Positions 21,572-46,702 of a stretch of 64,000 nucleotides of DNA are shown piece by piece. Both the position numbers and the translations under genes were made by a program. The stretch lies in the IMG/VR virus record IMGVR_UViG_3300005973_000002. One strand, given 5' to 3'. A model generated the notes under the pieces. It did no database searches. It was not told where the DNA came from and saw only the letters and a program-made list of their open reading frames with translations. How positions within the stretch are numbered: the first letter of the stretch is position 1; each line of letters starts with the position of its first letter. Origin of the DNA: a virus. Its lineage: Duplodnaviria; Caudoviricetes.

Positions 21572-21621
21572 AACCCGAGACTGATATAAACTGGTAATAT
21601 GTTGGCTTAGACTGTGGTGTC

Positions 21622-22521
21622 ATGTCCAAACCATATGATTATGAAAAAAGTGTAGCATTAATCTACGAAAATGATTCGCATCGTGGACCAGGCAAAGTGG
21701 TTCAAAATCTAAAACTTGGCCTTGAGAAGATTGGTGTTTCGGTTATTCCTGAATATAGTGGCCACCCTTGGAAGTACACAGGTTGCTTACAGTTTTGTAA
21801 GCCGCAATTAATTTCAAGTTATGCATCTACTGGACGCCCTATGCTCATGGGCCCGAACTTGTTTGTTTTACCTACCGATAATCCATCTCTGTGCAAGCTA
21901 TTCCAGCACTTTGTTGTGCCATCTGAGTGGGTGAAAAAAACGTATCAAGAATTTGATTTGATGAATGGAAAAAACATTCATGTTTGGTCTGTTGGTATTG
22001 ACACTGATGTTTGGAAACCGTCCGAGCAAGGTAAAACAGGTGATATAGATTGCATCGTTTACTTTAAAAATCGTTCCGACCAAGACCTAGCTGTTGTTGA
22101 AGCGATTTGTCGAAAATTTGATTTAAAGTATGAGCTTTTCAAATATGGCAGTTATCTAGAACAGGATCTGCATAAGTCAGCCACAACAAAAGCCAAGTTT
22201 GCTATTCTTTGCACGGGAACAGAGAGTCAAGGTATTGCTTACATGCAGTTACTTTCGGCTGGGTTACCTTGTTATGTTTTTAACAATCCACTTTGGAAAT
22301 CTGAAGACGGGAAACATACAGCAGTAGCTTCTTCTGTGCCATATTTTGACGAACGTTGCGGATACGTAATCAACAACGTTGATCTTGATCACTTCAAAGA
22401 GTTCTTAAAAAATATTGATAATTTTCATCCAAGAGACTATATCCTAGATAAACACACTCTTGAAGAAGCAGCACAAAAATACTTTGACCTGTTGAGAACA
22501 AGCAATGGCGAACAACTCTGA
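21622..22521 (+). CDS. Glycosyltransferase, GT-B-like
   Basis: GPGKV, MGPN, VPSEWV, GIDTDVWKP and ESQGIAYMQLLSAGLP. Confidence 0.7.
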   Translation: MSKPYDYEKSVALIYENDSHRGPGKVVQNLKLGLEKIGVSVIPEYSGHPWKYTGCLQFCKPQLISSYASTGRPMLMGPNLFVLPTDNPSLCKLFQHFVVPSEWVKKTYQEFDLMNGKNIHVWSVGIDTDVWKPSEQGKTGDIDCIVYFKNRSDQDLAVVEAICRKFDLKYELFKYGSYLEQDLHKSATTKAKFAILCTGTESQGIAYMQLLSAGLPCYVFNNPLWKSEDGKHTAVASSVPYFDERCGYVINNVDLDHFKEFLKNIDNFHPRDYILDKHTLEEAAQKYFDLLRTSNGEQL

Positions 22522-23371
22522 AAAACCACTAGTATCTTGCATAACCCCATCTTTCCGCATGGAGAGATACCTTAAAACCTTTCTGGATCGATTGCCGGAG
22601 CAAACTATTTTTGATCGAATACAAGTGGTGCTTGATCATAATGAACCAACTGAACAAGAACTTTCCTGGGTTAAAGAATTTGAAGAAAAGTATCCTGGAG
22701 TTATCAAACACGTTGTGGTTGATCCGGTAGAGCCAATTGGTATTTCAATGAACCGTTGCATTAATTTGGCTGATGGAGATTTTGTTGCCATTTGGAACGT
22801 TGATGACTTACGCACTCCTGATAGTCTTGAAAAACAAGCTAATGTCTTGTTAGAAAATGAAGATGTTGATGTTGTGCATGGTAACTTTGTTATTGTTAAT
22901 TCATTTCCCCATTTCAAGGGAAAGATGATTGATCATAGTCAATACAAGTTCAATCAAAAAGAATATACACGCAGTATGGTTCTTGGGCCATTTTTTATGT
23001 GGCGCAAATCTCTTTGCGACAAGGCAGGAAAATTTGACGAGCAATTGAAGTCTGGAGCTGATTTTGATCTTGCAATCCGGTTGGCAATACACGGTAAAGT
23101 TGATATAGCGCACGGAGTGCTTGGCTACTACCTTGACGAAGGCCGGGGGGCTTCAACACGTGGTGACAGCATTCAACCAATTGAACGTACCTTGATTGAA
23201 ATGAGATACGGAATATTGGATAAACTTGTTCACAGTTGGATGCCCGAAGTGAACAAAAGAAAATACATTGTAGAAAAACTAGTCTTTGATAATAAAGCAC
23301 ACCGAATTGAAGATTATGTTCCGGACTATTCAAACTTTCGGCACAGAAACACCAAGCTGGCCAAATCCTGA
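22505..23371 (+). CDS. Glycosyltransferase family 2
   Basis: PLVSCITPSF, NRCINLADGDFVAIWNVDD and DFDLAIR. Confidence 0.85.
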   Translation: MANNSEKPLVSCITPSFRMERYLKTFLDRLPEQTIFDRIQVVLDHNEPTEQELSWVKEFEEKYPGVIKHVVVDPVEPIGISMNRCINLADGDFVAIWNVDDLRTPDSLEKQANVLLENEDVDVVHGNFVIVNSFPHFKGKMIDHSQYKFNQKEYTRSMVLGPFFMWRKSLCDKAGKFDEQLKSGADFDLAIRLAIHGKVDIAHGVLGYYLDEGRGASTRGDSIQPIERTLIEMRYGILDKLVHSWMPEVNKRKYIVEKLVFDNKAHRIEDYVPDYSNFRHRNTKLAKS

Positions 23372-23380
23372 GAGGAAAGC

Positions 23381-24274
23381 ATGACAGAAAAAATGAGAAT
23401 TATGGCTTTATTGCCATTTCGAAATGAAGCCCATGTGCTTCCATCTTATTTTTCAACCGTTGCTCCACTGGTTGAAAAGATTATTGCAATTGATGATGGT
23501 TCCACAGACAATTCAGTAGAAATTATGAAAAAGGCTGGTGCTGACGTTTATTCTTGGGACAAAGAAAGAATGAAGTTCGGTTGGGCTGAATTGGGTATCC
23601 GGCAAAGACTTTTGGAGTTGGGCCGTGAGGCTGGAGGTACTCATTTTATTGTTTTAGATGCTGATGAAACGTTTACTCGCCCCTTTGTGGGAGTTTCGAC
23701 CAAAGTTTTCCGACAACTGGAGCCTGGTCAAAAAGTTTTAATGCAATGGTTAGCAATGTGGAAATCCGTTGACCATTACCGAGATGACAATAGTGTATGG
23801 AGTAACAACTATAAAGATTTCATTTTTAGGGATGATGGCGAAAGCAACTATCCAGAAGTTTGGATGCATACTCCACGAACTCCGGGTCGATTTGCGAATC
23901 ATGACCAAGATTTGACATTAAATCCAAAGTATGGTGCAGTAATGCACTTTCAATTTAGCAACTGGGATACATTTCAAATCAAACAGTGCTGGTGTCGAAT
24001 GTCTGAATTTATCAAAGATCCAGAATCGGCACAAAATGTCAATAACAAATATAGGATAACACTAGATGAAGATGCTGTAGTAATGCCACTGCCCGACAAT
24101 TGGAAAGAGGGCGTAAAACTACCAAAAATATCTTACCAAGATGACGTTTATTCTTTTTGGCGCTTAAAGGAAATAGAAAACTGGTTTGAAATTCATGGTG
24201 TAGATTTTTTCCGCAACCTAGAAATCTGGCATGTGCCACAAATTTGTGAGGTATCAAAGCGTTATGAAAAGTAA
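23381..24274 (+). CDS. Glycosyltransferase family 2-like
   Basis: PFRNE, IDDGSTD and VLDADE (DxD). Confidence 0.85.
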   Translation: MTEKMRIMALLPFRNEAHVLPSYFSTVAPLVEKIIAIDDGSTDNSVEIMKKAGADVYSWDKERMKFGWAELGIRQRLLELGREAGGTHFIVLDADETFTRPFVGVSTKVFRQLEPGQKVLMQWLAMWKSVDHYRDDNSVWSNNYKDFIFRDDGESNYPEVWMHTPRTPGRFANHDQDLTLNPKYGAVMHFQFSNWDTFQIKQCWCRMSEFIKDPESAQNVNNKYRITLDEDAVVMPLPDNWKEGVKLPKISYQDDVYSFWRLKEIENWFEIHGVDFFRNLEIWHVPQICEVSKRYEK

Positions 24275-25256
24275 AGCACTTGTTACAGGCGCCGCAGGGT
24301 TATTTGGTGCTAACTACTGCAAATATCTTTGTGATAAGGGTTATGAAGTCATTGGAATGGACAACCTGTCTGGTGGTTATCGAGACTTTGTAGATTCACG
24401 TGTAGAATTCTACCCCTGGGATATAAAACACACTTTTAGCGTCAACGAAGTATTTGAAGCACACAAACCGGACTACGTTGTTCATTTTGCGGCATACGCA
24501 GCGTGTGGATTGTCGCCGTTTATTCGTATTTTTAACTACGAAAACAACATCATTACGTCTGCCAATCTAATCAACGAAGCCATTCGCTTTGATGTCAAGA
24601 AATTCATTTTTGCGTCGTCAATGACCGTTTATGGTGATAATCCACCGCCTTTTACCGAGGACATGCCTTACAATCCCTCAGACCCATATGCTATAGCTAA
24701 AATGGCTGTTGAACTTGATTTAAAAGATGCCCACCAGCGCCATGGGTTAGATTATGCAATTGTGCGCCCACATAACGTACATGGTATATATCAAAATATA
24801 TGGGATCGCTATCGTAACGTAATTGGGATCTTCATACGAAAAGCTCTCAACGAAGAGGACTTGCTTGTTTATGGTGATGGTTCACAAATTAGAGCATTTT
24901 CGGATGTAAAATACTATATGGAACCAATTGAGAAGTTAATGTTCGAACATTCAGCAGAAACATTTAATATTGGTGCAGATAAACCAGTAACCATCCTAGA
25001 GCTTGCACAGTTGGTACAAAAAGTGGCTTTCGAATACGGTTACAAAACAAACATCAAACATGCTGAGCCAAGAAAAGAAGTTCATACGGCCTACTGTGAT
25101 CATAGCAAGGCAAAGAAACTTTTAGATTTTGAGGATAAAACCGACCTAGAAGAACTTATTCGTAAAATGTTTGTTTGGGCAGAAGGTCAACCAAACAGAA
25201 AAGTTAAAAAGATGGACATTGAACTAGATAAAAGACTTTATTCATACTGGAAATAG
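24264..25256 (+). CDS. NAD-dependent nucleotide-sugar epimerase/dehydratase
   Basis: TGAAGLFG, SSMTVYG, YAIAK and RPHNVHG. ATG at 24264 preferred. Confidence 0.9.
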   Translation: MKSKALVTGAAGLFGANYCKYLCDKGYEVIGMDNLSGGYRDFVDSRVEFYPWDIKHTFSVNEVFEAHKPDYVVHFAAYAACGLSPFIRIFNYENNIITSANLINEAIRFDVKKFIFASSMTVYGDNPPPFTEDMPYNPSDPYAIAKMAVELDLKDAHQRHGLDYAIVRPHNVHGIYQNIWDRYRNVIGIFIRKALNEEDLLVYGDGSQIRAFSDVKYYMEPIEKLMFEHSAETFNIGADKPVTILELAQLVQKVAFEYGYKTNIKHAEPRKEVHTAYCDHSKAKKLLDFEDKTDLEELIRKMFVWAEGQPNRKVKKMDIELDKRLYSYWK

Positions 25257-25257
25257 T

Positions 25258-26127
25258 ATGAAGTTTATTCACGTTCAATACGACATCATACAATCTGATT
25301 GGAAGGTGTTGCAAGTAGGCGGATCACGTCAACCGTTCCGACGTGCTAATGTTGTTATTGATCCACGTCCATGGGCAGAACGCAGCAAAACAAATTCCTG
25401 GGTTCAAACCATTCCGGAATATTTTTCCGAAAGGACTTGGTTTACGCAGCCGCTCGAAGAAACTCCTTGGCCTTTTGCTGATGAAGAGTTTGATTATGTT
25501 ATAGTTGACGATGCTATCGTTTCAACACGTGATCCGATTGCAGTTTGTCGTGAGATGGAACGGGTTGCCAAGCGTGGATATATTGAATTTCCTAATGTAG
25601 TTGCACAGCATCTACGTGGTGTTGAAGACCCAAATTATACCGGATACATCAATCATCGTTGGTTCGCTGACGTGGTGGACAATGCCATTCGCTTTAGTTA
25701 TAAACACCCTTCGGTGCATGTTAAAAAAGACTTTTGGATAGACAATCCAAAGTTACCAGTGCAGCCCTGGATTAATCCAAAGAAGGCGGTGGAAGGTCTG
25801 TTTTGGGATGCAAGTCTTCAATCTTATGAAGATTATGAAAATATGGAATTTCCAGACTGGTTCTTCGAAGAAAACACTTGGAAATATAAAGAGCAAACTG
25901 CAAATGAACAGCAGTTTAAAAACTTTTGGAAGGTTGATGAACCAATCCCAGTCATGTTGGAATGTAGACCATTTCAGGCTGGCACTTTAGTTCGAGTAAA
26001 TGATTTGCCATTTAAATTTGCCGTTTCAATGTTCACAAATAAAAATGAGCGACACATGGAAATGTTGAAATTCGAGCATTACATCGCAGAGAACATAAAC
26101 AATAAATACCATAAGTACCAACTTTAA
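25258..26127 (+). CDS. SAM-dependent methyltransferase-like protein
   Basis: WPFADEEFDYVI...DP...EMERVAKRGYIEFP. Confidence 0.6.
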   Translation: MKFIHVQYDIIQSDWKVLQVGGSRQPFRRANVVIDPRPWAERSKTNSWVQTIPEYFSERTWFTQPLEETPWPFADEEFDYVIVDDAIVSTRDPIAVCREMERVAKRGYIEFPNVVAQHLRGVEDPNYTGYINHRWFADVVDNAIRFSYKHPSVHVKKDFWIDNPKLPVQPWINPKKAVEGLFWDASLQSYEDYENMEFPDWFFEENTWKYKEQTANEQQFKNFWKVDEPIPVMLECRPFQAGTLVRVNDLPFKFAVSMFTNKNERHMEMLKFEHYIAENINNKYHKYQL

Positions 26128-26130
26128 TAC

Positions 26131-26730
26131 ATGAATTCGAAATATAAAAAAGAAAACTATGTTCACCTTGAAGATCATTGGAAAAAATATATGCCCAATG
26201 TTCTTTTTCAGCACTACAGAAAACTTTTTCAAGGCAAAATAGGAGATTTTGGCTGTAATACTGGGTTGTTTGATATCCATCTCGCAGAAATGGAAAGAGT
26301 AAACGAAGTTATTGGCTTTGATATAAATGAAGAAGCTATTAAAAAGGCAAAAGAATTTGCAGCAGTTTCACCAGTAAAATCAAAACTAAAATTTCACTGT
26401 CAAAACCTAACAGAAAAAATTGAATACGACAGTTACTTTGATTTTGTTATTTGTTTCCACACTATAGAACACATCTACCCTGAAGATGTTGATGATTGTG
26501 TACGTAATATTTTTACCTCGCTTAAAGTAGGGGGCTATGCACTGATAAATTTGCCTGATAAGCATTCATATCCTTGGGAGGAAACTCACGTATTCCATCC
26601 CAACAAAGAAGAATTATCAAAGCTCTTCGAAGTGCACGGTTTCTCTACGGTTGAAGCTTATGAAGATGAGCGAGGTGGCCAAGTTGGACACTCAAGAAAC
26701 ATCACTGCACTTTACCTAAAGGAGTTGTAA
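26131..26730 (+). CDS. Class I SAM-dependent methyltransferase
   Basis: IGDFGCNTG, GFDIN, FDFVICFHTIEH and LKVGG. Confidence 0.9.
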   Translation: MNSKYKKENYVHLEDHWKKYMPNVLFQHYRKLFQGKIGDFGCNTGLFDIHLAEMERVNEVIGFDINEEAIKKAKEFAAVSPVKSKLKFHCQNLTEKIEYDSYFDFVICFHTIEHIYPEDVDDCVRNIFTSLKVGGYALINLPDKHSYPWEETHVFHPNKEELSKLFEVHGFSTVEAYEDERGGQVGHSRNITALYLKEL

Positions 26731-27468
26731 ATGAATTTGGTGGCAAAAAATACATGGATTTTGCACCCGACTTCGGGTCATCCAAACAAAAATACGTTTG
26801 AAACACCTTGGTATAAATCTCCCATTAGAACAAAGGATGTTCCCATCTTTACGGGGTTTTTCAGGGTCGGAAATCATTATCTAATTGAATTGATTCAACG
26901 TTATTTTGAAGCTAATGTTTGGATTGATGGTAGGTTAAAGCCAGAAAACATTATATGCTTCTGGACCCATGATCATGATCATTGCTTGGAGGCTATAACA
27001 CCATGTATGTTTTTATACAGGAAAAATGTATGCCACATGATGTATTCTTTATATAAAAGTCAATATGTCGAGGCTAAAGCGTGTGATGTTAATGTAGAAA
27101 ATTTTATAAAATATAGAGTTAATGATTATAAATACAATACAAATAAATGGCTTAGGAATGCTGATTTAATAATTGAATATGAAAAGCTTGTTTATAAACC
27201 TCAAGAAGAATTTAAAAAAATTGCACAGTTTTTTGGAAAGTTATTTGTTCAAGAAAAATTTGAAAGGGTAAAGAAGGTTATCACACATGATTACGTAATC
27301 GGCAAGTGGAAGAATACGTTGCCAAACTATTTTTTTCATCGGGATGCAAACTACGTCCCTGACAGAAATAAATGGATTGAAAAATTTAAGCCCACTATTT
27401 TTAAACACTTTTTTGATGAAACGCACACTCCTGTTGGTAACTTGGCTGAATTTCTCACTTTAGAATGA
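26731..27468 (+). CDS. Sulfotransferase-like protein
   Basis: GFFRVGNHYL (5'-PSB-like), YRKN...YSLY (3'-PB-like) and IEYEKLVYKPQEEFKKIAQFFG. Confidence 0.6.
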   Translation: MNLVAKNTWILHPTSGHPNKNTFETPWYKSPIRTKDVPIFTGFFRVGNHYLIELIQRYFEANVWIDGRLKPENIICFWTHDHDHCLEAITPCMFLYRKNVCHMMYSLYKSQYVEAKACDVNVENFIKYRVNDYKYNTNKWLRNADLIIEYEKLVYKPQEEFKKIAQFFGKLFVQEKFERVKKVITHDYVIGKWKNTLPNYFFHRDANYVPDRNKWIEKFKPTIFKHFFDETHTPVGNLAEFLTLE

Positions 27469-28403
27469 TGTATGTAGCAAAATGTCCTTTGAGAATTTCT
27501 CTTGTTGGAGGAGGGACAGACCTTGATAATTTTATTAAAAAATACGGCAAAGGTTCAGTTATTAGCTTCCCTTCAACGCTTTATGTTTATGTTAGTATTC
27601 ATGATAACAACCGAAGTCAATATGTCCTAAACTATTCTAAGAACGAAGAAGTAGATGAATTATATGAAGTACAAAACACGCCTGCAAGAATAGTTCTTGG
27701 TCACTACAACACTGGACCAATTACTGTCTCGTTTCTTTCAGACATTATTTCCACAGGCTCAGGACTGGGCTCCTCTTCAGCTTACATGAATGCGCTAACG
27801 AAAGCTGTAACAATGTATAAGAGTGAACAGTTGACTGAATTTGAAGTTTGTAGACAAGCACTGGAACTTGAAAGAAAGTTCAATCCCGAGACTGGCTATC
27901 AAGATTCATATGGCTGTGGCGTTGGAGGATTCAAGCGCATCAACTTTATCAAAGATAGACGTCCCAATTTTTCGTTTTTAGATGGTGATTTTCTTAGAGA
28001 CAATTTTGACATGGCTCTCTATTACACAAAAATAACAAGAGACTCAAATGATATTTTAAAAACGATAAACACAGACCGTTGCTTGCCGCTTCTTACAATG
28101 GTTGATGATCTCGAACAAGCCATAGAAGAACAAAATACTGAAGGTTTCCTTGAAATATTCAACAGAGGTTGGGACATTAAAAAGACAACGTCACCATTAA
28201 TCGCAGATGATGAAAGGTTTCAGAAGTGGAATGAAGAGTTTCAGAAGCACAAAGATGTTCTCGGAATCAAACTTTGCGGAGCTGGTGGTGGTGGTTATTT
28301 TCTAGCTCTATGTAAGAAAGGCTGTGCGCCTAAACAAATAAATGGTTCACAAGCAATACCAATTGGAGTCAACGAAACTGGAGTAGTTGGCCAGAGGTTT
28401 TAA
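27465..28403 (+). CDS. hddA: D-glycero-alpha-D-manno-heptose-7-phosphate kinase (GHMP family)
   Basis: PLRISLVGGGTD, GSGLGSSSA, GYQD, GG and KLCGAGGGGY. Confidence 0.8.
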   Translation: MMYVAKCPLRISLVGGGTDLDNFIKKYGKGSVISFPSTLYVYVSIHDNNRSQYVLNYSKNEEVDELYEVQNTPARIVLGHYNTGPITVSFLSDIISTGSGLGSSSAYMNALTKAVTMYKSEQLTEFEVCRQALELERKFNPETGYQDSYGCGVGGFKRINFIKDRRPNFSFLDGDFLRDNFDMALYYTKITRDSNDILKTINTDRCLPLLTMVDDLEQAIEEQNTEGFLEIFNRGWDIKKTTSPLIADDERFQKWNEEFQKHKDVLGIKLCGAGGGGYFLALCKKGCAPKQINGSQAIPIGVNETGVVGQRF

Positions 28404-28912
28404 TGAACAAAGATGAATTGATAAGAGAAATAGAAAAGGTGTATTCTAAATCTGGTGCGCTTAAAAGCTTGATAGAAGACCATGAGGAAATCATTCTAAT
28501 TGGCAATGGAGCAAGTTGTGCCATAGCTAGCCACATGGCTGTCGATTACACCAAGCAATTAAAAAAGAAAGCATTTGCATTCACTGATGCTTCTAGACTT
28601 ACTTGTTATGTAAATGACTACGGTAGCAATAGAGCTTATGCACAATTTGTAAAAGAATTCGCAACTCCTGGAAAGACTTTAGTGATCCTGATCTCATCAT
28701 CAGGAAACTCCAAGAATATAACGAACGCAGCTAATCGTTGTGAGATTGATGGAGTGGCTTGGGTAGCTTTGTCTGGCAAAGATCACGACAACAAACTTCA
28801 TAGAACCAACTACATGTATAGGAAGTTAAATGTTTGGGTAGAAAGCCAAGACTACGGTGTGGTAGAATGTGTTCATCAAATTCTTTTGCACTCAATTATG
28901 GAAGTAAAGTAA
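28403..28912 (+). CDS. gmhA: Phosphoheptose (sedoheptulose-7-phosphate) isomerase, SIS domain
   Basis: IGNGAS..IASH, SSSGNSKN and VVECVHQILLH. Confidence 0.8.
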   Translation: MNKDELIREIEKVYSKSGALKSLIEDHEEIILIGNGASCAIASHMAVDYTKQLKKKAFAFTDASRLTCYVNDYGSNRAYAQFVKEFATPGKTLVILISSSGNSKNITNAANRCEIDGVAWVALSGKDHDNKLHRTNYMYRKLNVWVESQDYGVVECVHQILLHSIMEVK

Positions 28913-29619: not shown

Positions 29620-29658
29620 ACTCCTGAAGTATAACCTTAGAACAACGACAGGTGTTTC

Positions 29659-30567
29659 ATGAAAAAGGTACTCGTAACAGGTGGCGCAGGGTTCATTGGT
29701 TCAAACGTTGTTGATCTTCTAGTAGAGAAAGGCCATGATGTTATCGTGGTAGATAATCTTTCTACTGGTTATACTGAAAACTTAAATCCTAAAGCTAAAT
29801 TTTGCAATTTAGATTTGCTTGACAGTAAATTGCTTTTTAAAAAAATGTTGACCGAGTTTGGTCAAATTGATGTTGTGTTTCATCTAGCTGCATTGCCAAG
29901 AGTTGAGCCGAGTATTCATGACCCCGTTGGCTCAAACGAACAGAATGTCACAGCAACACTAAACCTATTTGAAGCTTGTAGGAAAGCGGGAGTTAAAAAT
30001 ATAATCTATTCGTCTTCATCGTCAGTATATGGCGACGCCAAAAATGTTCCAACTGATGAAAACGAACCTGTTGATCCGATGAGTCCTTATGCCTTACAAA
30101 AGCTCATCGGCGATCAATATGCAGAACTGTTCTGTAGGCTATACGATATGAACATCACCTGCCTTCGTTACTTTAACGTCTATGGAAATCGAGAGCCTAC
30201 TGTTGGCGCTTATGTGCCTGTAATCGGTATTTGGTTTAGACAGCTTGCCGAAGGTAAACCTTTGACCATAACAGGAGATGGTAGACAAAGCCGAGATTTT
30301 GTTAACGTGCTTGACGTAGCGAAAGCAAATGTTATGTCTGCCGAAGCTGGATTGAGAGGATATAATGTTTTTAACATTGGTTCAGGAACTACACACGAAC
30401 TAAATTATTTAGCATTACTTATTTCTAAGAACATAACATACATTGCACCAAGGATGGAACCTAGACACACGTGTGCTGATATTTCTCTCATGAAAAACAT
30501 GATTGGATGGAAATCAACTATTAATATTAAAGCCTACATTAGAGAAAAGGTAAGAAATTTAAAATGA
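29659..30567 (+). CDS. NAD-dependent epimerase (UDP-sugar 4-epimerase-like)
   Basis: TGGAGFIG, SSSSVYG, YALQK and LRYFNVYG. Confidence 0.92.
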   Translation: MKKVLVTGGAGFIGSNVVDLLVEKGHDVIVVDNLSTGYTENLNPKAKFCNLDLLDSKLLFKKMLTEFGQIDVVFHLAALPRVEPSIHDPVGSNEQNVTATLNLFEACRKAGVKNIIYSSSSSVYGDAKNVPTDENEPVDPMSPYALQKLIGDQYAELFCRLYDMNITCLRYFNVYGNREPTVGAYVPVIGIWFRQLAEGKPLTITGDGRQSRDFVNVLDVAKANVMSAEAGLRGYNVFNIGSGTTHELNYLALLISKNITYIAPRMEPRHTCADISLMKNMIGWKSTINIKAYIREKVRNLK

Positions 30568-31299
30568 AGACTAAAACTTTACAGGATATATAAAAGAATA
30601 CGAAGATACGGAACTGTGCAATAGTTCAATTATTCTAGACTTTAATCTAGGAACCGATTCTGTTTCTTGGTTAAAAAATCACAGAGATTTTATTGAAACA
30701 TCTTATAAAAAGGGAGTCATCTATGGACATGGAGCAAGATGTTTGCAATACATGTGGAAACTGATCGTGGACCAAATGCCATCTGATTTTTCATTTTTAG
30801 AAATAGGAGTTTACAAAGGTCAAATTTTATCTTTAATTGAGTTATGTGCAAATAAAACAGAAAAAAATTCCAAAATGGTAGGGGTAACTCCACTTTTCGA
30901 TCCTGATTTTGCCAAGTATAACCGCATGCCTTATATTGAAGGAATATTTAAAAACTTTTCACTTACGATGGAAAACACGACCATCATTGATGGAAAGTCA
31001 CAAGATGAAAAGATTGTTGAAAAAGTAAATAATTTAGGTCCGTTTAATATTGTTTATATCGATGGAGATCACTCATATCAGGCAACTGTTGATGACATCA
31101 AAATTATGATAAATGTTTAAAATCGGGCGGTTTTATGATTGTGGATGATGCTAGTAATTTTAAAAAAATCCCAACTTACGCAAGTTCCTTCAAAGGAATC
31201 ATTGAAGTTTCAGAGGCAGTTAGAGATACCCTTGAGAAGGATTCATCTTATGAAGACTTGCTTACCTGTATGCATGTTCGCATTTTTAGAAAGAAATAA
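30564..31299 (+). pseudogene. Class I SAM methyltransferase (Methyltransf_24-like) broken by two single-base frameshifts
   Basis: FLEIGVYKG and YIDGDHSY, with LKSGGFMIVDD in the next frame. Breaks at about 30591 and 31100-31103. The reconstructed ORF overlaps both neighbours (ATGA and TAATG). Confidence 0.8.
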
Positions 31300-32459
31300 T
31301 GATGGAAAAGATAAAAATTGCATTCATTAAATTTTGTGGTTTGGCAGCAGGCGGAACTGAAAAGGCATTGCAAACCATTGCGGCAAATCTTCCGAAGGAT
31401 CGATTTGAAGTAGATTACTATTATTGTGACGCTGCACCATACCTTGGTTCGGATTACAAACATGCCGACACTGATCCATATAGAAAAGCTTATATGGAAA
31501 GTAAAAATGTGAATCTTGTAAAATTTAGTGTCGCCTATAAAGACGTGAGAGATTCAACACACAAATGGATCGATACTAATTTTTGGGAAATGTTTGATGA
31601 AAACAGGTATGACATCATTCAAACCGCCCGAGCAGGTCATCCAGAATATCCTTTTACTCAAATAAATTCAACTCCTCAAGTGGACTTGGTCACATTGCCT
31701 GGAATGGCTGAAAACAAAGTTAATGTAGTTAAAACTGTTCATATTTCAAAGCACCAAGCAGAAACTTGGGTCAAAGCTGGAGGAAATCCTAGTAAAATTG
31801 AAGTTATCCCACTATTTGATGAGCTTCCGACACCACCTAAATTGAACTTTAGAAAGGAATTTAAATTAGAAAATAAATTTGTGTTTGGCTTACATCAGAG
31901 AGTCGATGATGGAATTTTTTCTCCAATTCCATTAACAGCATTCAAAAAGCTTGAAGTCGAATTTGATAATGTTGCTTTCTTATTACTTGGTGGAAGCGAC
32001 AGATATAGAGAACAGGCCGCAACACTTAAATTGCAAAATTTTCATACGCTTCCTCATACCGGAGACAAGCAAAGTATTTCAAAGTTTTTAAACACATTAA
32101 ATGCCTATGCTCACGGACGTTCAGATGGAGAAACTTTCTCATTGGCTATCAGCGAGGCAATGAGTTATGGATTGCCGATAATAAGCCACGCCGCTCCAGC
32201 AATGGGCCACGTGGAGACAATAGGAGAAGCTGGAGTTGTGGTAGACAGTTTGGAAGCATATGTCAACACAATGAAAAAGCTTGTGCAGGATAAAGACTAT
32301 TACAAAATTGTTTCAAACAAAGCTGCCGAACGTTTTCAAAACCATCTTTCTTTGAATGTTAATATTGCAAAGTTCATAACACTATATGAACATGTGTATC
32401 AATCAAATCGCCTTATAAAGGCCGATGATGGCTGGTTGTCTGAATGGATAGAAAATTAA
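31299..32459 (+). CDS. Glycosyltransferase family 4
   Basis: GGTEK and ETFSLAISEAMSYGLPII. Confidence 0.9.
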   Translation: MMEKIKIAFIKFCGLAAGGTEKALQTIAANLPKDRFEVDYYYCDAAPYLGSDYKHADTDPYRKAYMESKNVNLVKFSVAYKDVRDSTHKWIDTNFWEMFDENRYDIIQTARAGHPEYPFTQINSTPQVDLVTLPGMAENKVNVVKTVHISKHQAETWVKAGGNPSKIEVIPLFDELPTPPKLNFRKEFKLENKFVFGLHQRVDDGIFSPIPLTAFKKLEVEFDNVAFLLLGGSDRYREQAATLKLQNFHTLPHTGDKQSISKFLNTLNAYAHGRSDGETFSLAISEAMSYGLPIISHAAPAMGHVETIGEAGVVVDSLEAYVNTMKKLVQDKDYYKIVSNKAAERFQNHLSLNVNIAKFITLYEHVYQSNRLIKADDGWLSEWIEN

Positions 32460-32460
32460 A

Positions 32461-33333
32461 ATGATAAAACATCAAAACGTCACACCCTGTCGTAAAAGCA
32501 TAATGGTGTTGGGGGGTTCTGGACAAATCGGTCGGCCTCTTTGTGACTTTTTGTATAGGCGAGGGTGTAAAGTATACAATGTTGATCTTGTTCTTGGCAA
32601 AGACCATGATTTAAGAAACTCACAAAATATTGCATCGTATTGGATGTCTCAAGTAGATTTTGTTTATTTTTTAGCTTTCGACATTGGTGGTTCTAAATTT
32701 CTCAAATTAAAACAAGATGACTGCACATTTTTAATGAATAATATGAAGATAATGACCAGTGTATTTGATATGCTTGAAACTCACAAAAAACCATTTGTTT
32801 TTGCCTCTTCATCAATGGCTGAAATGCCTTGGTCTCCATACGGAAATCTCAAGAAAGTTGGGGAGCATTTTACAGAATCTCTGGGTGGTGTCTCAACACG
32901 CTTTTGGAATATCTATGGACCAGAGCATGATGACATGAGAGCGCACGTCATTACTGATTTTATTAAAAAGGCAAAAAATACCGGCGTAATCAACATGTTG
33001 ACTAACGGTTCGGAAGTTAGGCAGTTTTTGCATGCTAAAGACTGCTCTGAAATTCTTTTGACACTTGCTGAACGATTTGATGAAGTTAAAAAATATAAAA
33101 AATTGGATGTTAGTAACGGAGTTTGGTCTTCTATTGGTCAAGTGGCAGAATTGGTTGCTGCTCACTACAAAGTAGATATTATAAAAGCTCCTCATGAGGA
33201 TACGGTACAAAACGACAGCAGGATTGAACCAAATTTGGACACATTGTGTAAATTTTGGAATCCAAAAAATTCAATTACATTAAAAGATGGCATTGTTGAC
33301 ATGATCAAATATTACGAGAAAAATGATGGCTGA
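32461..33333 (+). CDS. NAD-dependent epimerase/dehydratase (divergent)
   Basis: GGSGQIG, ASSS, YGNLK and RFWNIYG. Confidence 0.85.
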   Translation: MIKHQNVTPCRKSIMVLGGSGQIGRPLCDFLYRRGCKVYNVDLVLGKDHDLRNSQNIASYWMSQVDFVYFLAFDIGGSKFLKLKQDDCTFLMNNMKIMTSVFDMLETHKKPFVFASSSMAEMPWSPYGNLKKVGEHFTESLGGVSTRFWNIYGPEHDDMRAHVITDFIKKAKNTGVINMLTNGSEVRQFLHAKDCSEILLTLAERFDEVKKYKKLDVSNGVWSSIGQVAELVAAHYKVDIIKAPHEDTVQNDSRIEPNLDTLCKFWNPKNSITLKDGIVDMIKYYEKNDG

Positions 33334-34264
33334 TTTGCTTGTTACGGGCGGCACCGGAATGGTCGGGCAAGCCATTCGCAAACTTCTCCCTAAAGACTTT
33401 GACGTTGCTCTTGTTGGTTCGAAAGATTACGATCTAACCAACCCAACAAAAGCTCGAAAAATGGTTAGAGAGCTAAAACCAAAAAAAATCATTCACCTAG
33501 CAGCAAAAGTTGGTGGTGTAAAAGCCAACACTGAGAAGGTCGCAGAATTCTTTAATGAGAACATTTTAATAAACACAAATGTGCTGATGGCTGCTGACAA
33601 ATATGATGTTCAACACGTTGTCTCAATGTTGAGCACTTGTGTGTATCCAGATGTCAAGTGGGTAACCTATCCGTTGACCGAAACACAGCTTCATAAAGGA
33701 CCACCGCACGATTCAAACTTTGGATACGCTTATGCAAAAAGAATGCTAGAAGTTCAATCAAGAGCTTATAGAAAGCAAAAGGGTAGAAACTACACAACAG
33801 CTATTCCAAACAACATCTACGGACCTCATGATAACTTCGATTTAGAAGATGGACATGTGGTTCCAGCGGTTATCCGTAAGATATATGAGGCCAAACTAAA
33901 AGGAACCAATGTAACTTTCTGGGGCGATGGCTCAGCTCTCCGTGAGTTTACCTTTTCAGAAGATATTGCTGCATGTCTCCTAAAAATGGTAGGTTGTCCT
34001 ACTGGTGAAATGTACGATAGTTCAATTCCATGCAATATTGGTATATCTGTTGAAACTTCAATCAAAGAATTGGTAGAAACCGTAACTGAAATTTTTGAAT
34101 TCAAAGGCAGAATAAACTGGGACACAACCAAACCCGCTGGGCAATATCGCAAACCAAGTAGTGCCGGCAGAATTAACCATGACTACAAGCCTCTAAGAGA
34201 AGGGCTGGAAATTACTTGTGAGTGGTTTGAAAAAACATATCCTGATGTACGTGGTGTTAAGTAA
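33323..34264 (+). CDS. fcl: GDP-L-fucose synthase (GDP-4-keto-6-deoxymannose epimerase/reductase)
   Basis: GGTGMVG, AAKVGGVKAN, STCVYP, YAYAKR, PNNIYGPHDNF, HVVPA and WGDGSALREF. Confidence 0.9.
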   Translation: MMADLLVTGGTGMVGQAIRKLLPKDFDVALVGSKDYDLTNPTKARKMVRELKPKKIIHLAAKVGGVKANTEKVAEFFNENILINTNVLMAADKYDVQHVVSMLSTCVYPDVKWVTYPLTETQLHKGPPHDSNFGYAYAKRMLEVQSRAYRKQKGRNYTTAIPNNIYGPHDNFDLEDGHVVPAVIRKIYEAKLKGTNVTFWGDGSALREFTFSEDIAACLLKMVGCPTGEMYDSSIPCNIGISVETSIKELVETVTEIFEFKGRINWDTTKPAGQYRKPSSAGRINHDYKPLREGLEITCEWFEKTYPDVRGVK

Positions 34265-34291
34265 AACATTTAATTCAACTAGATAGAGACT

Positions 34292-35287
34292 GTGAACATG
34301 TACAAACCTTATGACAAACGCACTGCGCTTATTAGCGGAATAACGGGACAGGATGGTTCATATTTGGCTGAACTTCTATTAGACAAAGGCTACAAGAAGG
34401 TTGTTGGTCTAAGACGTAGAACTTCCACTTTCAACACTGAACGAGTAGAGCACTTCTATCATAATCCAAGATTTTGGATGGAGTGGGGCAACATGACCGA
34501 CAGCCATTCTTTATGGCGAGTGTTAACCAAGTGGAAACCAGATGAAGTTTACAATCTTGCAGCTCAGTCTCATGTGAGAGTTTCATTTGACGTTCCTGAA
34601 GAGACGCTTGACGTAGTTGCAATGGGAACAATGAAGCTCTTAAATGTTTGTAAAGAGATTGTTCCCGAGGCCAGAATTTATCAGGCTTCATCGTCTGAAA
34701 TGTATGGAGATAATCCTGAAACTCCTCAGAATGAGGAGACAAGAATGACTCCTGCGTCGCCATACGCTTGTGCAAAACTTTTTGCGCATAATCTTTGTCG
34801 CAACTATCGTGAAGGATATGGCATGCACATTTCTTGCGGAATTCTGTTCAATCACGAATCAGAACGCAGGGGGGAAACCTTTGTAACTAGAAAGATCACT
34901 CAAGCTGCCGCCAAAATCAAACTTGGCAAACAAGAAATTCTTGAGCTTGGTAATCTTGGTGCTAAAAGAGACTGGGGCCATGCTTCTGATTATGTATACG
35001 GAATGTGGCTAATGCTTCAACAGGACAAACCTGATGATTATGTCCTTGCTACAGGTGAAACACATACTGTTAAAGAATTTCTCGACGAAGTATTTGCTCA
35101 TGCCGGTCTTGACGTTGACAAACACGTTAGAATTAACCCGAAATATTTCCGCCCACACGAGGTTCCTCTTCTTTTGGGTGATCCAACTAAAGCAAAGACA
35201 AAGCTGGGTTGGGAGCCTAAAATCAAATTCAAAGAACTTGCTAAATTGATGTACGAGGCCGATCTTGAAAAAGAAATAGGTTTATAA
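34292..35287 (+). CDS. gmd: GDP-mannose 4,6-dehydratase
   Basis: GITGQDGSYL, NLAAQSHV, QASSSEMYG, SPYACAK, LFNHES and RDWGHA. Confidence 0.95.
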   Translation: MNMYKPYDKRTALISGITGQDGSYLAELLLDKGYKKVVGLRRRTSTFNTERVEHFYHNPRFWMEWGNMTDSHSLWRVLTKWKPDEVYNLAAQSHVRVSFDVPEETLDVVAMGTMKLLNVCKEIVPEARIYQASSSEMYGDNPETPQNEETRMTPASPYACAKLFAHNLCRNYREGYGMHISCGILFNHESERRGETFVTRKITQAAAKIKLGKQEILELGNLGAKRDWGHASDYVYGMWLMLQQDKPDDYVLATGETHTVKEFLDEVFAHAGLDVDKHVRINPKYFRPHEVPLLLGDPTKAKTKLGWEPKIKFKELAKLMYEADLEKEIGL

Positions 35288-35355
35288 CAAGTACGGATTG
35301 AACAAAAATAGCAATAACCAAGAGAATAGTAACCAGAAGGAAAGTCAAAGTATCC

Positions 35356-36933
35356 ATGACCGAATCACTACTAACTGTAGATAATGAACTTCTTGGCGAT
35401 GATCTTTTCATCAAGCCAAAGAAAAAGAAAAAGATCCTAATGTTGTCTGATCATCCGCTTGCGCCATCAGGCGTGGGTGTTCAGGCAAGATTCCTCATTG
35501 AGGGCTTAATCAACACGGGCAAATATAGTTTTCGTTGCCTTGGTGGTGCGATCAAGCACCAGGATTATAGAACAATAAAAGTAAACGATGATTTTATCAT
35601 AAAACCAGTAGATGGTTTTGGCACTCATGAGATGATTCGTAGTTTGCTTGTGACTGAAAAGCCAGATGCGCTTATTATTTTTACAGATCCAAGACAATTC
35701 ATTTGGTTATGGGAAATTGAAGATGAAATTCATCAAGTTTGTCCGATTACTTACTGGCACGTATGGGACAATGATCCATATCCTGCTTTCAACAGACCTT
35801 GGTATGAGTCAACAGATTTAATCAACTGCCTCTCTTACAAGACTTATGAATTGATCAAACCACATTTTCCTGAAAAGACTCATTACATCCCACATGCTTT
35901 TCCAAAGCATGTTTATTATGAGCTTCCAAAAGAACAGGTTGACAACCTTGCTTCTCAAAATTTTGGACCAAGAGCAAATTGGTTTAAAGCTCTTTGGGTA
36001 AACCGAAATGCAACTCGTAAATTACCAGCCGATGTTCTTAGTGCTTGGAAAGTTTTCTTAGACAAACTTGAGGCAAAACATGGTCATCGAAACGCTGTTT
36101 TGATCATGCATACAGACCCAGGTGACGCCGAGGGCCCAAATCTACTTGCCGTGGCAGAAATGCTAGGTCTTCAAAACAATGTTTGGTTTTCAACAGATAA
36201 GCTTGGTTTTGATAGAATGAATATTCTGCACAATCTTGTTGATACTGTAGTAAACGTTTCAAAAAATGAAGGATTCGGACTTTCTACTCTTATTTCTTTG
36301 CAAGTCGGCAAACCGATTATCGCCTTAAAAACCGGAGGAGAAACACGTAAAGTTGTTGATTATAGGGATGGAACTGAAATTGGAGTTGGGCTCGATCCGA
36401 TTAAACGTTGTCTCGTAGGTTCACAACTTGTCCCATATATCTATGAAGATTTTGCAGGAACAGAAGAGCTTGCAAATGCCTTCCTTACGGTTCATGATTA
36501 CACCCCTGAAGAGAAGGCCAAACTTAGAGAAAAGGCTTTGGACTACGTTGATTTTGAATACAATCATGAAGACATCGTAAGACGATGGGATGAGACATTA
36601 ACAAAATGTATCGAAAATTTTGAGTCTGGGAACACCAATAGGTGGAGCATCCAAAAAATTGAACCAGTTGTTCCTGGTCAGGGTGAAGAAGCTGTTGTTG
36701 ATAGAAATCCTAGCAGGCTCGAACAAGCAAAGCAAGCACAGATTGCAGCTGATGCAGTTAAAACTCAACAATTCATGCAAACATCATTAGGCAGTGCCGA
36801 AGCAGGTTCAACAAAGACTGTTTCGAAGGGCAGGAAGAAAGTTTCTACTACAAAATCAACCGCTAAGCCTAAAAACGACTCAGTAAAAACAACAACAAAA
36901 AAATCCAACAAAAAGAGGAAGAAAAGGAAGTAA
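35356..36933 (+). CDS. Glycosyltransferase family 4 with Lys/Thr-rich C-terminal tail
   Basis: SGVGVQ, NRNATRK and NEGFGLSTL. Confidence 0.88.
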   Translation: MTESLLTVDNELLGDDLFIKPKKKKKILMLSDHPLAPSGVGVQARFLIEGLINTGKYSFRCLGGAIKHQDYRTIKVNDDFIIKPVDGFGTHEMIRSLLVTEKPDALIIFTDPRQFIWLWEIEDEIHQVCPITYWHVWDNDPYPAFNRPWYESTDLINCLSYKTYELIKPHFPEKTHYIPHAFPKHVYYELPKEQVDNLASQNFGPRANWFKALWVNRNATRKLPADVLSAWKVFLDKLEAKHGHRNAVLIMHTDPGDAEGPNLLAVAEMLGLQNNVWFSTDKLGFDRMNILHNLVDTVVNVSKNEGFGLSTLISLQVGKPIIALKTGGETRKVVDYRDGTEIGVGLDPIKRCLVGSQLVPYIYEDFAGTEELANAFLTVHDYTPEEKAKLREKALDYVDFEYNHEDIVRRWDETLTKCIENFESGNTNRWSIQKIEPVVPGQGEEAVVDRNPSRLEQAKQAQIAADAVKTQQFMQTSLGSAEAGSTKTVSKGRKKVSTTKSTAKPKNDSVKTTTKKSNKKRKKRK

Positions 36934-36934
36934 T

Positions 36935-38233
36935 ATGACTGACGACAAAAGAAAAATTGAAAGCGCACAACTTCCTCCAATGGAAGGGTTGTTGTCGGGT
37001 CCAAGTGCACCCAAATTTAATCCAGGCACACAAACCAAAAAAGTTATTCTTAGGGCTCCTGTGCTTACACAATCGGGCTATGGTGTGCATTCTAGGCAGG
37101 TTGCTCGATGGTTGTTTGATCAAATGGACCAAAGGGATGACCTTGAAGTATTTGTTGAGCCGCTACAATGGGGTGTTACTCCTTGGGTTGTAAATACTGA
37201 TTCTTATGATGGACTTATTGGTAGATTGGTTCAGCACTCAACCCAATCAGATCATTATGATGTGTCACTACAACTTCAACTTCCCAACGAGTGGAATCCA
37301 TTTTTAGCTGATTACAACATCGGAATTACTGCTGCTGTTGAAACAGATAAGTGCAATCAGGAATGGGTAAAGCATGTAAACCAAATGGACATGGTTATTG
37401 TTCCATCAGAATTTGTAAAATCTGTAATCCACAATGCTGGTGTTGAGGTTACGACAAAAATAGTCGTGGTGCCAGAAGCATTTACAGACGCATGTTTGGA
37501 TGACGCACTTAATGTTTCTGAAAACGGAAGCTATGATACAGTGATAAATCTTTCGAACATAGAAACCGAATTTAATTTTCTGGTTTTTGGTCAATTTTGT
37601 GGCAACAATCCTGACAATGATCGAAAAAATTTAGCATACACGATTAAGTGGATGTCGGAAGTATTCGCCGAAAATCCCGATGTCGGAGTAATAGTAAAAA
37701 CAAATTTTGGTCGCAACACCAAGCTTGACAAACTAAACACAACAAATATTCTTGCAAAAGTCCTCCTTGAAACCAAAAAAGGCCCAGGGCCAAAGTTTTA
37801 CCTTCTTCACGGAAACATGTCAGATGAAGAAGTGGCAGGACTTTATCGTCATGATAAAGTAAAAGCTCTCGTTAGCCTCACAAGGGGTGAGGGCTTTGGC
37901 TTACCAATTCTTGAAGCAGCTGCTTGTGGACTTCCAGTTATTGTAACGAATTGGAGTGCACACACTGAATTTCTCGGACAAGGTAAGTATGTTAAGGTAG
38001 ATTACCGACTTAGACCAATCCACGAATCAAGGGTTGACAATAAGATTTTCTTCTCTGGTATGCAGTGGGCAAACCCTGACGAGTCGGATGCAAAAAGAAA
38101 ACTTCAGAAGTTTTACCGCAGTCCCGGCCTGCCCCAAAAATGGGCAAAGGAGCTTGCGACGAAGCTACAAAAAACGCATAGCTTTAAGGCCATCAGCGAT
38201 AGATACTCGGAAGTTCTAAAAGATATAATATAA
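36935..38233 (+). CDS. Glycosyltransferase family 4
   Basis: SGYGVHSR, RKN and GEGFGLPILEAAACGLPVI. Confidence 0.9.
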   Translation: MTDDKRKIESAQLPPMEGLLSGPSAPKFNPGTQTKKVILRAPVLTQSGYGVHSRQVARWLFDQMDQRDDLEVFVEPLQWGVTPWVVNTDSYDGLIGRLVQHSTQSDHYDVSLQLQLPNEWNPFLADYNIGITAAVETDKCNQEWVKHVNQMDMVIVPSEFVKSVIHNAGVEVTTKIVVVPEAFTDACLDDALNVSENGSYDTVINLSNIETEFNFLVFGQFCGNNPDNDRKNLAYTIKWMSEVFAENPDVGVIVKTNFGRNTKLDKLNTTNILAKVLLETKKGPGPKFYLLHGNMSDEEVAGLYRHDKVKALVSLTRGEGFGLPILEAAACGLPVIVTNWSAHTEFLGQGKYVKVDYRLRPIHESRVDNKIFFSGMQWANPDESDAKRKLQKFYRSPGLPQKWAKELATKLQKTHSFKAISDRYSEVLKDII

Positions 38234-39460: not shown

Positions 39461-39504
39461 AATTTCTAAAACGTATCAGTTGTTTGGCAATGTCATAAGC
39501 CTTA

Positions 39505-40491: not shown

Positions 40492-40550
40492 AATTGATTA
40501 TAAATAGATCATTCATACTTTCATTGAAACCCACCAGCGGTTTTTCGTAC

Positions 40551-41501: not shown

Positions 41502-41545
41502 GACCCTACCCTCCTTTGGGGAACTTATTAACTTTTATCTCAATT

Positions 41546-45581: not shown

Positions 45582-45593
45582 TTACACCTCAAT

Positions 45594-46651: not shown

Positions 46652-46702
46652 ACATAACTCTCAATCAAAGTTAGTACAAATCAAAGGATACGTTTTGGGC
46701 AT

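Follow-up and report, generated by a model that had tools for sequence, protein, structure and literature searches.

A conserved glycosyltransferase pair and a variable sugar cassette form a predicted glycan locus in uncultured jumbo phages

What does a tailed phage build with a long run of sugar genes placed among its virion genes, and onto what is the product attached? The question is raised by a 64,000-nt stretch of viral DNA (Duplodnaviria; Caudoviricetes; IMG/VR record IMGVR_UViG_3300005973_000002), here called the window. Its positions 21622-38233, the island, hold 18 co-oriented plus-strand open reading frames (ORFs) in an uninterrupted run, which specify glycosyltransferases (GTs), nucleotide-sugar enzymes and tailoring enzymes. 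The proposed phage origin was borne out and the phage is huge, as window proteins are present on a 461,086-bp contig. Giant viruses of eukaryotes are well known to encode glycosylation that does not depend on the host. In phages, to our knowledge, glycosylation by the virus itself is known from a few actinobacteriophages with small gene sets. An original prediction, made from the letters of the window alone, had described the island as one self-sufficient biosynthesis unit of 17 genes. Its coordinates were right and the plus-strand run was found there, but the ORFs number 18 and the island is not a single unit. It consists of a conserved two-gene anchor (35356-38233) and a modular, variable cassette. 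We conclude with high confidence that the island is one allele of a locus for glycan diversity which is present clade-wide and made of these two parts.

The anchor comprises two GT4 genes, GT525 and GT432. Eighty IMG/VR loci centred on GT525 were probed with all window proteins. GT525 was detected in 80/80 loci; GT432 and a sigma factor-like gene on its right were each detected in 79. The two GT genes, which are 1 nt apart, occurred together in 79 of the 80 loci. The anchor was linked to a baseplate module in 72/80 loci, with the wedge genes usually next on the same strand. Clustering at 90% identity gives at least 4,848 clusters for the GT525 family, and none of its top 120 members is on a contig longer than 471 kb. 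The pair is also present in two cultured phages, Flavobacterium phage vB_FspM_immuto and Microcystis phage Mel-JY01 (GT432 identity about 33%). These nearest cultured relatives are distant (31-33% protein identity) and carry other sugar genes downstream of the pair, with a different cassette in each. The anchor genes belong to the core gene set of a very large, uncultured jumbo-phage clade. In a complete relative of 390,884 bp the GT525 ortholog is an 888-amino acid (aa) ORF (L177:520-3186, minus strand; G001:C1:184019-186685) which contains an intein with Intein_splicing and LAGLIDADG endonuclease domains. The intein interrupts the invariant catalytic motif of GT525 (EGFGL, then C...HN of the intein, then STL), a placement typical of conserved core genes; we know of no other intein in a glycosyltransferase. 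As a side observation, a 318,917-bp contig labelled 'MAG: Candidatus Paceibacterota bacterium' (P0175, P0280) has close homologs of GT525 and of the phage-type GDP-mannose 4,6-dehydratase Gmd. Probably, this contig is a jumbo phage mis-binned as a bacterium of the candidate phyla radiation.

The slot upstream of GT525 was surveyed in the 56 loci with at least 8 kb of DNA there. It held 677 ORFs in 296 clusters, 94% of them co-oriented with the anchor. Pfam matches of 148 cluster representatives covered GT2, GT10 fucosyltransferase, GT47, FkbM/TylF and other methyltransferases, DegT aminotransferases, UDP-glucose dehydrogenases, short-chain dehydrogenases/reductases (SDRs), cupins and HAD enzymes. 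Individual cassette genes of the window recurred in part of the 80 loci, Gmd in 35, the GDP-L-fucose synthase Fcl in 29 and the epimerase-like SDR2 in 22. The closest relative (L080/L092, 82-89% identity) is without exactly 26131-29619, a 3.5-kb block that starts with a methyltransferase gene. Sub-modules are reused in varied combinations: GT-like/GT2/GT2, GHMP/SIS/HAD-nucleotidyltransferase/SDR, Methyltransf_24/GT4/SDR and Fcl/Gmd. The GT-like gene at 21622, which opens module A, occurs together with the two GT2 genes in two other loci (L118 and L170). We found no description of such an architecture, a conserved anchor with a variable cassette, in the cited literature on viral glycosylation.

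The gene identities, obtained from Pfam, NCBIfam, PDB sequence searches and Atlas look-ups, are listed in Table 1. They agree largely with the predicted inventory. Six GTs had been claimed and six were identified, starting at 21622 (weak), 22505, 23381, 31299, 35356 and 36935; the protein at 21622 reached an Atlas feature score of 0.99 to viral 'glycosyltransferase family' clusters. The three claimed epimerase/dehydratases are the SDR genes at 24231, 29659 and 32461. For SDR1 the top PDB match was a UDP-glucose 4-epimerase (4zrm, E 1.4e-42), and the start codon is probably the ATG near 24264. The sulfotransferase-like gene at 26731, with its weak Pfam match, was corroborated by an Atlas score of 0.97 (200/256 features common) and by structural TM scores of 0.72-0.75 to Sulfotransfer_1 clusters, some of them viral. 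Two of the three expected methyltransferases stood, the weak one at 25258, which has an ortholog in L092 at 62%, and that at 26131. The third, listed at 30743, is broken: compared with the intact, 92%-identical ortholog of 245 aa in L092, the 5' end including the ATG is missing and 1 nt is deleted in an A-run. This Methyltransf_24 gene is probably a pseudogene, as judged from the alignment; the A-run lesion may be a homopolymer sequencing error.

The claimed gmd and fcl pair was recovered at 34292 and 33323. The top 18 PDB matches of the latter were all GDP-L-fucose synthases, full-length and with E values from 1.5e-78 to 2.6e-26, and its NCBIfam score of 227 bits is under the equivalog cutoff of 500. 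By these matches it is a genuine GDP-L-fucose synthase (GDP-4-keto-6-deoxymannose 3,5-epimerase/4-reductase). The label 'self-sufficient' was overstated. The island does not produce GDP-mannose, UDP-sugars, 3'-phosphoadenosine-5'-phosphosulfate (PAPS) or S-adenosylmethionine (SAM); a domain of the NTP_transferase or phosphomannomutase type, as in ManC and ManB, was detected in none of its ORFs, and it holds no genes for PAPS or SAM synthesis. The heptose branch alone begins at a central metabolite (sedoheptulose-7-phosphate) and reaches nucleotide activation.

This heptose branch, also foreseen, was resolved into a GHMP kinase, an SIS isomerase and a HAD/nucleotidyltransferase fusion, followed by SDR2. 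Best PDB matches of the kinase are heptose kinases (4n3o and 3k85, E 1e-16; WcbL-type 4usk). The isomerase, with a score under the curated equivalog cutoff, is by its profile match a divergent GmhA member. The fusion protein matched a capsule phosphatase in its N-domain (NCBIfam; PDB 9iqw, E 5e-14) and rfaE domain II in its C-domain (E 3.5e-24; PDB also 3elb). Its start is an ATG overlapping the GmhA stop, which is where the PDB match begins. The fusion protein has 628 full-length homologs. The HAD motif DxD (D7, D9) and the nucleotidyltransferase signature, HPGY in place of HxGH, do not vary across the family. The promiscuity motif (F/L)xxGRSTT (PMC11573728) is unmatched, with WSTS found there, and therefore the heptose nucleotide cannot be assigned. 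SDR2 has WbpP/WbgU-type epimerases as its best PDB matches. It follows the fusion gene in the three phage loci with the complete heptose set (L100, L103 and L107, 46-58% identity; L094 has a partial set) and in two bacterial loci, in which the order GHMP-SIS-HAD/nucleotidyltransferase-SDR recurs (L172:8545-11645 and L173:4148-7272). One bacterial carrier is a 6.0-Mb genome in which the order hadABC-secE-nusG-rplKA is that of mycobacteria; the other is a Mycobacterium metagenome-assembled genome. There, the cassettes adjoin genes for a flippase, an initiating transferase, GT2, GT4 and methyltransferases. The phage heptose loci keep the cytoplasmic chemistry without the lipid-carrier and export parts of these counterparts. 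For the variant with GHMP kinase and HPGY cytidylyltransferase-type enzyme no description was found in the cited literature on nucleoside diphosphate (NDP)-heptose and glycosylation.

Is the membrane machinery really absent? A flippase, a polymerase and a lipid-carrier transferase had been reported as not recognisable, and neither a Pfam match to any of them nor a hydrophobic segment was detected in the island proteins; no protein has a 19-residue stretch above 1.65 on the Kyte-Doolittle scale. In the slots of the 56 loci, 0/677 ORFs had three or more transmembrane segments and 655 had none. As a control of the script, the bacterial locus L172 yielded 10 segments for its Wzx-type flippase and four for its Bac_transf protein. 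The data support a set of soluble proteins that builds a glycan in the cytoplasm, with one branch for fucose and one for heptose and with tailoring by methyl and sulfate groups. Thus, the predicted cytoplasmic glycan of the fucose/heptose type was upheld, with soluble proteins and both pathways identified. A surface-polysaccharide locus dependent on Wzx/Wzy or an ABC transporter was rejected, as initiating transferase, flippase or transporter and polymerase or ligase were not found. Bacterial O-antigen, capsule and S-layer loci share with the island the same four heptose genes in order, a fusion protein of 51-55% identity and GT2, GT4 and methyltransferase genes; however, they have a Wzx-type flippase and Bac_transf, which the 56 phage loci never do.

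The soluble GTs could still act on the host envelope. In that case they would work at the inner face of the membrane on undecaprenyl-linked or lipid acceptors of the host, whose flippases and ligases would export the product, and the benefit could be a superinfection block, a receptor change or an altered surface of the lysing cell. We regard this as unlikely. Phages of Bacteroidota, phages of Cyanobacteria and thousands of environmental phages all keep the anchor pair, at 30-88% identity, and the proposal is weakened because host acceptors would differ among such diverse hosts. Moreover, an initiating transferase, a flippase, a ligase and a Gtr-type membrane protein are absent in all 56 loci. 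Known phage serotype-conversion systems (GtrABC) are membrane-protein based, which also counts against it. On the other side, GT4 and GT2 enzymes of this type usually use lipid-linked or small acceptors, with PimA, MshA, BshA and PglA among the structural neighbours, and the order of the heptose genes is that of bacterial surface-polysaccharide loci. The high cassette diversity would fit a tracking of varied host surfaces. Two features of the anchor region point in the same direction. GT525 residues ~440-525 (window 36670-36933) form a disordered, very Lys-rich tail (…KKSNKKRKKRK) that could bind anionic lipid; the tail is confined to the window subclade, and most orthologs stop near residue 440. 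Next to the anchor lies the gene of a conserved, membrane-anchored small protein, h149. It is present in 62/80 loci and absent from immuto; in 60/60 homologs examined it follows GT432 and has the transmembrane helix, after which comes a conserved RFARIIMxxEDDxSDA segment.

Bacterial counterparts of the cassette also raise the possibility that a host polysaccharide locus was captured recently and is decaying, without function in the phage, an outcome against which the original prediction had asked to be checked. One of the 18 genes is broken, and in the heptose block GC is a little lower, at 0.35. Yet 17/18 genes are intact and tightly packed, catalytic motifs are conserved, and the modules recur in related phages at 46-89% identity. 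Among the best 120 Gmd homologs identity declines gradually from 89% to 69%, and no contig that carries them exceeds 508 kb. Similarly, the nearest fusion homologs (65-83% identity) lie on phage-sized contigs of 100-500 kb, compared with ~51-55% identity for the bacterial ones. Finally, the missing parts are exactly the membrane steps, and this in all 56 loci. A decaying capture is scarcely credible.

The anchor proteins themselves bear on the nature of the acceptor. AlphaFold 2 models had pLDDT values of 82.5 (GT525) and 91.1 (GT432). Both proteins carry many invariant residues; GT432 has the canonical E-x7-E and GT525 keeps its first Glu alone. Descent as recent paralogs was rejected: the alignable part is limited to about 120 residues at the C-terminus (hhalign probability 96%), and no relationship links the N-domains. 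The common part is the C-terminal donor-binding domain, and the N-terminal acceptor domains differ. A model of the complex of the two cores scored 0.85, compared with 0.43 for the best control. The mark used is reached by 58/80 solved complexes and by 2/110 mismatched pairs, counts which apply roughly here as our own alignments were supplied. The prediction is thus a heterodimer of GT525 and GT432. As neighbouring GT-B proteins (~500 and 440 aa) with predicted mutual binding they resemble GtfA/GtfB, the two-subunit O-GlcNAc transferase that acts on serine-rich repeat adhesins; here, however, both partners keep invariant catalytic-site residues. Kinship with GtfA/GtfB was rejected: there was no DUF1975 match, the GtfA/Gtf1 (4pqg) profile gave E 0.065-0.41, and GtfA and SdgB ranked at 25 or lower in Foldseek with TM scores of ~0.47. 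The best solved structure for both anchor GTs was that of B736L from chlorovirus NY-2A (3oy2; GT525 E 3e-19, GT432 E 8.8e-18 in Foldseek), followed by generic retaining GT4 enzymes. Among viral models, the best matches were GTs from giant viruses and uncultured tailed phages, with giant-virus GTs at the top for GT432.

By analogy, the closest known system is chlorovirus capsid glycosylation. In chloroviruses the capsid protein receives its glycans in the cytoplasm from soluble GTs of the virus, which also has genes for GMD and GMER (PMC5408694); chlorovirus glycans share a conserved core (PMC7826918). The likeness of PBCV-1 and NY-2A to the present locus extends to GTs without signal peptide or transmembrane segment, virus-encoded nucleotide-sugar enzymes including GMD and GMER, methyltransferase tailoring and a glycan made of a conserved core with strain-specific decoration. 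By structure, both anchor GTs come closest to B736L, a homolog of A546L, at an identity of ~16%; the function of B736L is not known (PMC5408694). In contrast to the scattered chlorovirus genes, those described here lie in one operon-like locus of a tailed bacterial phage, with a predicted GT4 heterodimer as anchor and with heptose and sulfate branches.

Could DNA be the acceptor? In phage T4 the alpha-glucosyltransferase gene adjoins gene 55, and a gp55-type gene lies to the right of the anchor here. This synteny lead was dropped as evidence as the Foldseek top 50 contained no T4 GT. Under a DNA hypermodification scheme the GTs would attach heptose or hexose glycans to hydroxymethylated pyrimidines and so evade restriction. 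A precedent exists in phage clusters of HAD/kinase, cytidylyltransferase and GT-B genes which put mono- or di-heptose on 5-hydroxymethylcytosine and which can adjoin structural genes (bioRxiv 10.1101/2023.12.21.572611). These DNA-glycan clusters, described by Pyle et al., have HAD, kinase, cytidylyltransferase and GT-B genes in common with the island; they differ in that no neighbouring C5-methyltransferase/TET pair or hydroxymethylase was found here and in that the anchor GTs are unlike T4 beta-GT. Within the window no enzyme was found that forms hydroxymethyl-pyrimidines, neither a hydroxymethylase nor a C5-methyltransferase with a TET-like dioxygenase. In five large relatives, two of them complete, a C5-cytosine methyltransferase was not found, with a positive search control, nor was TGT/DpdA in the five. 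Three relatives have a ThyA, and in two of them it is canonical. In the third, G001, a divergent ThyA-family protein (L176:1486-2325, minus strand, 201 bits) has PCAFE for PCH..FQF and keeps the uracil-specifying Asn; on these residues its activity could be that of a dUMP hydroxymethylase and not of a thymidylate synthase, which would favour DNA as acceptor, as would the Lys-rich tail of GT525. Both GT cores, though, are net acidic (GT525 core -11; GT432 N-domain -13, pI 4.5), neither anchor protein has a T4 DNA glucosyltransferase among its top 50 structural matches, and six GTs with methyl and sulfate tailoring go beyond any known DNA glycan. Immuto has the anchor pair and more GTs, yet its DNA, analysed by liquid chromatography with UV and tandem mass spectrometric detection, contained dA, dC and dT, with dG fully replaced by fdPreQ1, and no glycosylated nucleoside was reported (PMC10516641). 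DNA glycosylation is thus very unlikely.

We therefore return to a phage protein, most plausibly of the virion, as the acceptor, for which we see about an even chance; the order of sugar addition and a role in shielding or adhesion are likewise inferred. A phage-encoded acceptor is favoured because phages that infect hosts of different phyla have all kept the anchor. An exposed surface structure would be suited because the product has several sugars, is methylated and sulfated and is highly diverse between phages. The reading gains indirectly because the closest structure is a chlorovirus GT and because immuto DNA lacks a glycosylated nucleoside. The linkage of the anchor to the late sigma gene and the baseplate module also points to virion proteins. 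Several observations weigh against it. The neighbouring structural proteins, which had been called S/T-rich in the original prediction, have just 18-19% Ser+Thr, which is not distinctive. In immuto and Mel-JY01 the locus is near replication and lysis genes and not near virion genes, and in distant relatives the upstream tail-like genes are 29-130 kb away. The polybasic tail of GT525 would suit binding to DNA or anionic lipid, the membrane-anchored h149 could point to the membrane, one unrelated protein reached 0.43 in the complex test, and the heptosylated cytosine clusters with their HAD/kinase, cytidylyltransferase and GT-B enzyme show another use of such genes (bioRxiv 10.1101/2023.12.21.572611).

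Another cytoplasmic acceptor might be considered, such as non-structural phage or host proteins, e.g. for inactivation of host factors, or a free or small-molecule glycoconjugate. Every enzyme is soluble, small-molecule GTs (MshA, BshA, TreT, sucrose-phosphate synthase) are among the near GT4 structures, and PF20706, 'GT4 in conflict systems', matches GT432 weakly. But a multi-sugar, methylated, sulfated and diverse product suits an exposed surface better than an intracellular modification, and the linkage of the anchor to the baseplate module across the surveyed loci argues the same way. We consider such acceptors quite unlikely.

If virion proteins are the acceptor, glycan assembly might proceed in two layers. 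The translationally coupled GT525 and GT432 would put the first, conserved sugars on a phage-encoded acceptor, likeliest a virion protein, or several, encoded by the late tail and baseplate genes nearby. The swappable cassette would then supply activated sugars and extend and tailor the glycan. Sedoheptulose-7-phosphate would be converted into an NDP-heptose by the isomerase, the GHMP kinase and the HAD phosphatase/nucleotidyltransferase fusion and then be acted upon by the epimerase; host GDP-mannose would be turned into GDP-L-fucose by Gmd and Fcl, and UDP-hexoses would be epimerised. Four further GTs would add sugars, which the methyltransferases and the sulfotransferase would cap. With a different cassette in each relative, every phage might display its own glycan type, comparable to a serotype. 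That the locus is a true serotype locus, in which a heterodimeric GT4 primes virion proteins and an exchangeable cassette builds a phage-specific coat (here of heptose and fucose, O-methylated and sulfated), is a tentative idea, possible but short of probable.

How does this compare with other viral glycosylation? Reportedly, mycobacteriophage virion glycosylation systems consist of few GTs that use host nucleotide sugars. The locus described here differs from mycobacteriophages by its 18 genes, three nucleotide-sugar branches, clade-wide anchor and highly variable cassette. Mycobacteriophage GTs glycosylate the phages' own capsid and tail tube subunits, according to the account in PMC12619734 (Freeman et al. 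2023, as cited there). In Megavirinae, clade-specific clusters for sugar synthesis and GTs make rare, bacterial-like sugars on the virion surface (PMC10117803). Giant-virus GTs are the top viral structural matches of GT432; the likeness is one of fold, while realm and sugars differ and no shared anchor pair is known. Aquatic jumbo phages termed 'moraphages', with predicted Bacteroidota hosts, have four core GT orthogroups and a sigma factor, and a role of these GTs in DNA or virion glycosylation is put forward as speculation (PMC12619734). They may or may not coincide with the present clade; the paper describes no anchor pair, variable cassette or sugar pathways (PMC12619734).

The position of the island between tail and baseplate modules, as predicted, holds in the window; upstream the adjacency is limited to this subclade. 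Spacers within the island range from -79 to +68 nt, except for two gaps of ~175 nt that flank the broken gene, and the GC content of 0.35-0.40 is near that of the rest of the window. A 1080-aa upstream neighbour matches virus-only clusters alone and has no family assignment. The baseplate module is inverted in the window and its two nearest relatives, an inversion present in L093 and L095; in most relatives the module comes after the sigma gene and has its orientation. When the island and the baseplate module were compared by megablast with 50,697 phage records, no match was returned. A promoter and terminator scan of 20500-40000 gave fewer promoter-like sites than the shuffled expectation, and no T4-late-like TATAAATA motifs were positioned at the starts of island genes.

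Table 1. Genes of the island (21622-38233) and flanking features of the window.
Feature	Position	Strand	Evidence or remark
GT-like protein, 299 aa, virus-type, weakly GT4-like	21622..22521	+	Pfam Glyco_transf_4 E 0.002 (below cutoff)
GT2, 288 aa	22505..23371	+	Pfam Glycos_transf_2 E 6e-11 (above cutoff); without transmembrane segment
GT2, 297 aa	23381..24274	+	Pfam Glycos_transf_2 E 8.7e-9, Glyco_tranf_2_4; without transmembrane segment
SDR1, GalE-like NDP-hexose 4-epimerase	24231..25256	+	Pfam Epimerase E 4.5e-49
Probable methyltransferase, 289 aa, weak	25258..26127	+	Pfam MetW E 7e-7 over ~45 residues
Class I SAM methyltransferase, 199 aa	26131..26730	+	Pfam Methyltransf_23/11/25, E ~1e-16
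Sulfotransferase, 245 aa	26731..27468	+	Pfam Sulfotransfer_1 E 0.002 (weak)
GHMP-family heptose-7-phosphate kinase (HddA-like)	27465..28403	+	NCBIfam HddA E 3.9e-25 (below cutoff)
GmhA-like sedoheptulose-7-phosphate isomerase (SIS)	28403..28912	+	NCBIfam gmhA E 3.7e-16 (below cutoff); Pfam SIS
HAD phosphatase fused to cytidylyltransferase-type heptose-1-phosphate nucleotidyltransferase, 235 aa	28912..29619	+	
SDR2, NDP-sugar 4-epimerase-like, fourth gene of heptose cassette	29659..30567	+	Pfam Epimerase E 4.6e-65
Methyltransf_24 remnant	30568..31298 (listed ORF 30743-31120)	+	Aligned to intact L092:5204-5941
GT4, 386 aa	31299..32459	+	Pfam Glycos_transf_1 E 8.6e-15
SDR3, divergent	32461..33333	+	Pfam Epimerase E 2.7e-23; best PDB match just E 1.7e-7
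GDP-L-fucose synthase (Fcl/GMER)	33323..34264	+	PDB 4e5y, E 1.5e-78
Gmd, GDP-mannose 4,6-dehydratase	34292..35287	+	NCBIfam gmd 449.8 bits, above cutoff 415
GT525, first anchor GT4, 525 aa	35356..36933	+	Core residues 1-438, Lys-rich disordered tail after
GT432, second anchor GT4, 432 aa	36935..38233	+	Canonical E-x7-E (E319, E327)
h149, small protein with N-terminal transmembrane helix	38233..38682	+	Hydropathy 2.14 at residues 1-19
Late sigma factor-like (gp55-type)	38657-39460	+	PHROG 234, E 1.9e-5; conserved right-hand neighbour, 79/80 loci
Endolysin-like gene	6767-7507	-	PHROG 1493, E 9e-9; just upstream of tape-measure-like gene
GIY-YIG homing endonuclease	8429-9319	-	PHROG 314, E 1.6e-26; just upstream of tape-measure-like gene
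Tape-measure-like gene	9777-14381		Upstream flank
Baseplate-wedge-like small ORF	17887-18180		Upstream flank
Baseplate/fibre module (h276, h419, h638, h286, h1155, h523, gp6-like)	39505-57123	-	
HNH and GIY-YIG homing endonuclease genes	39505-40491 and 45594-46651		Inside baseplate/fibre module
gp6- and gp25-like wedge subunits	52505-54839	-	Downstream flank

The combination of a clade-wide anchor with a cassette, a predicted heterodimeric priming enzyme and a complete predicted NDP-heptose pathway together with sulfation is notable for a phage glycan locus. Why viruses encode NDP-heptose pathways is an open question (PMC11573728), and the occurrence of such a pathway inside a glycan-assembly locus bears on it. 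The cultured phages immuto and Mel-JY01 make the glycosylation hypothesis directly testable, and the anchor pair would make a convenient marker. Confirmation of virion glycans would make the glycan type a variable to consider for host range, environmental persistence, immune recognition and phage taxonomy. Should the locus indeed act like a serotype locus, tailed-phage virions would have an O-antigen-like surface diversity under diversifying selection, for example by host defences, adsorption to non-host surfaces or grazers. The locus would extend virus-encoded glycosylation to a very abundant environmental clade of jumbo phages.

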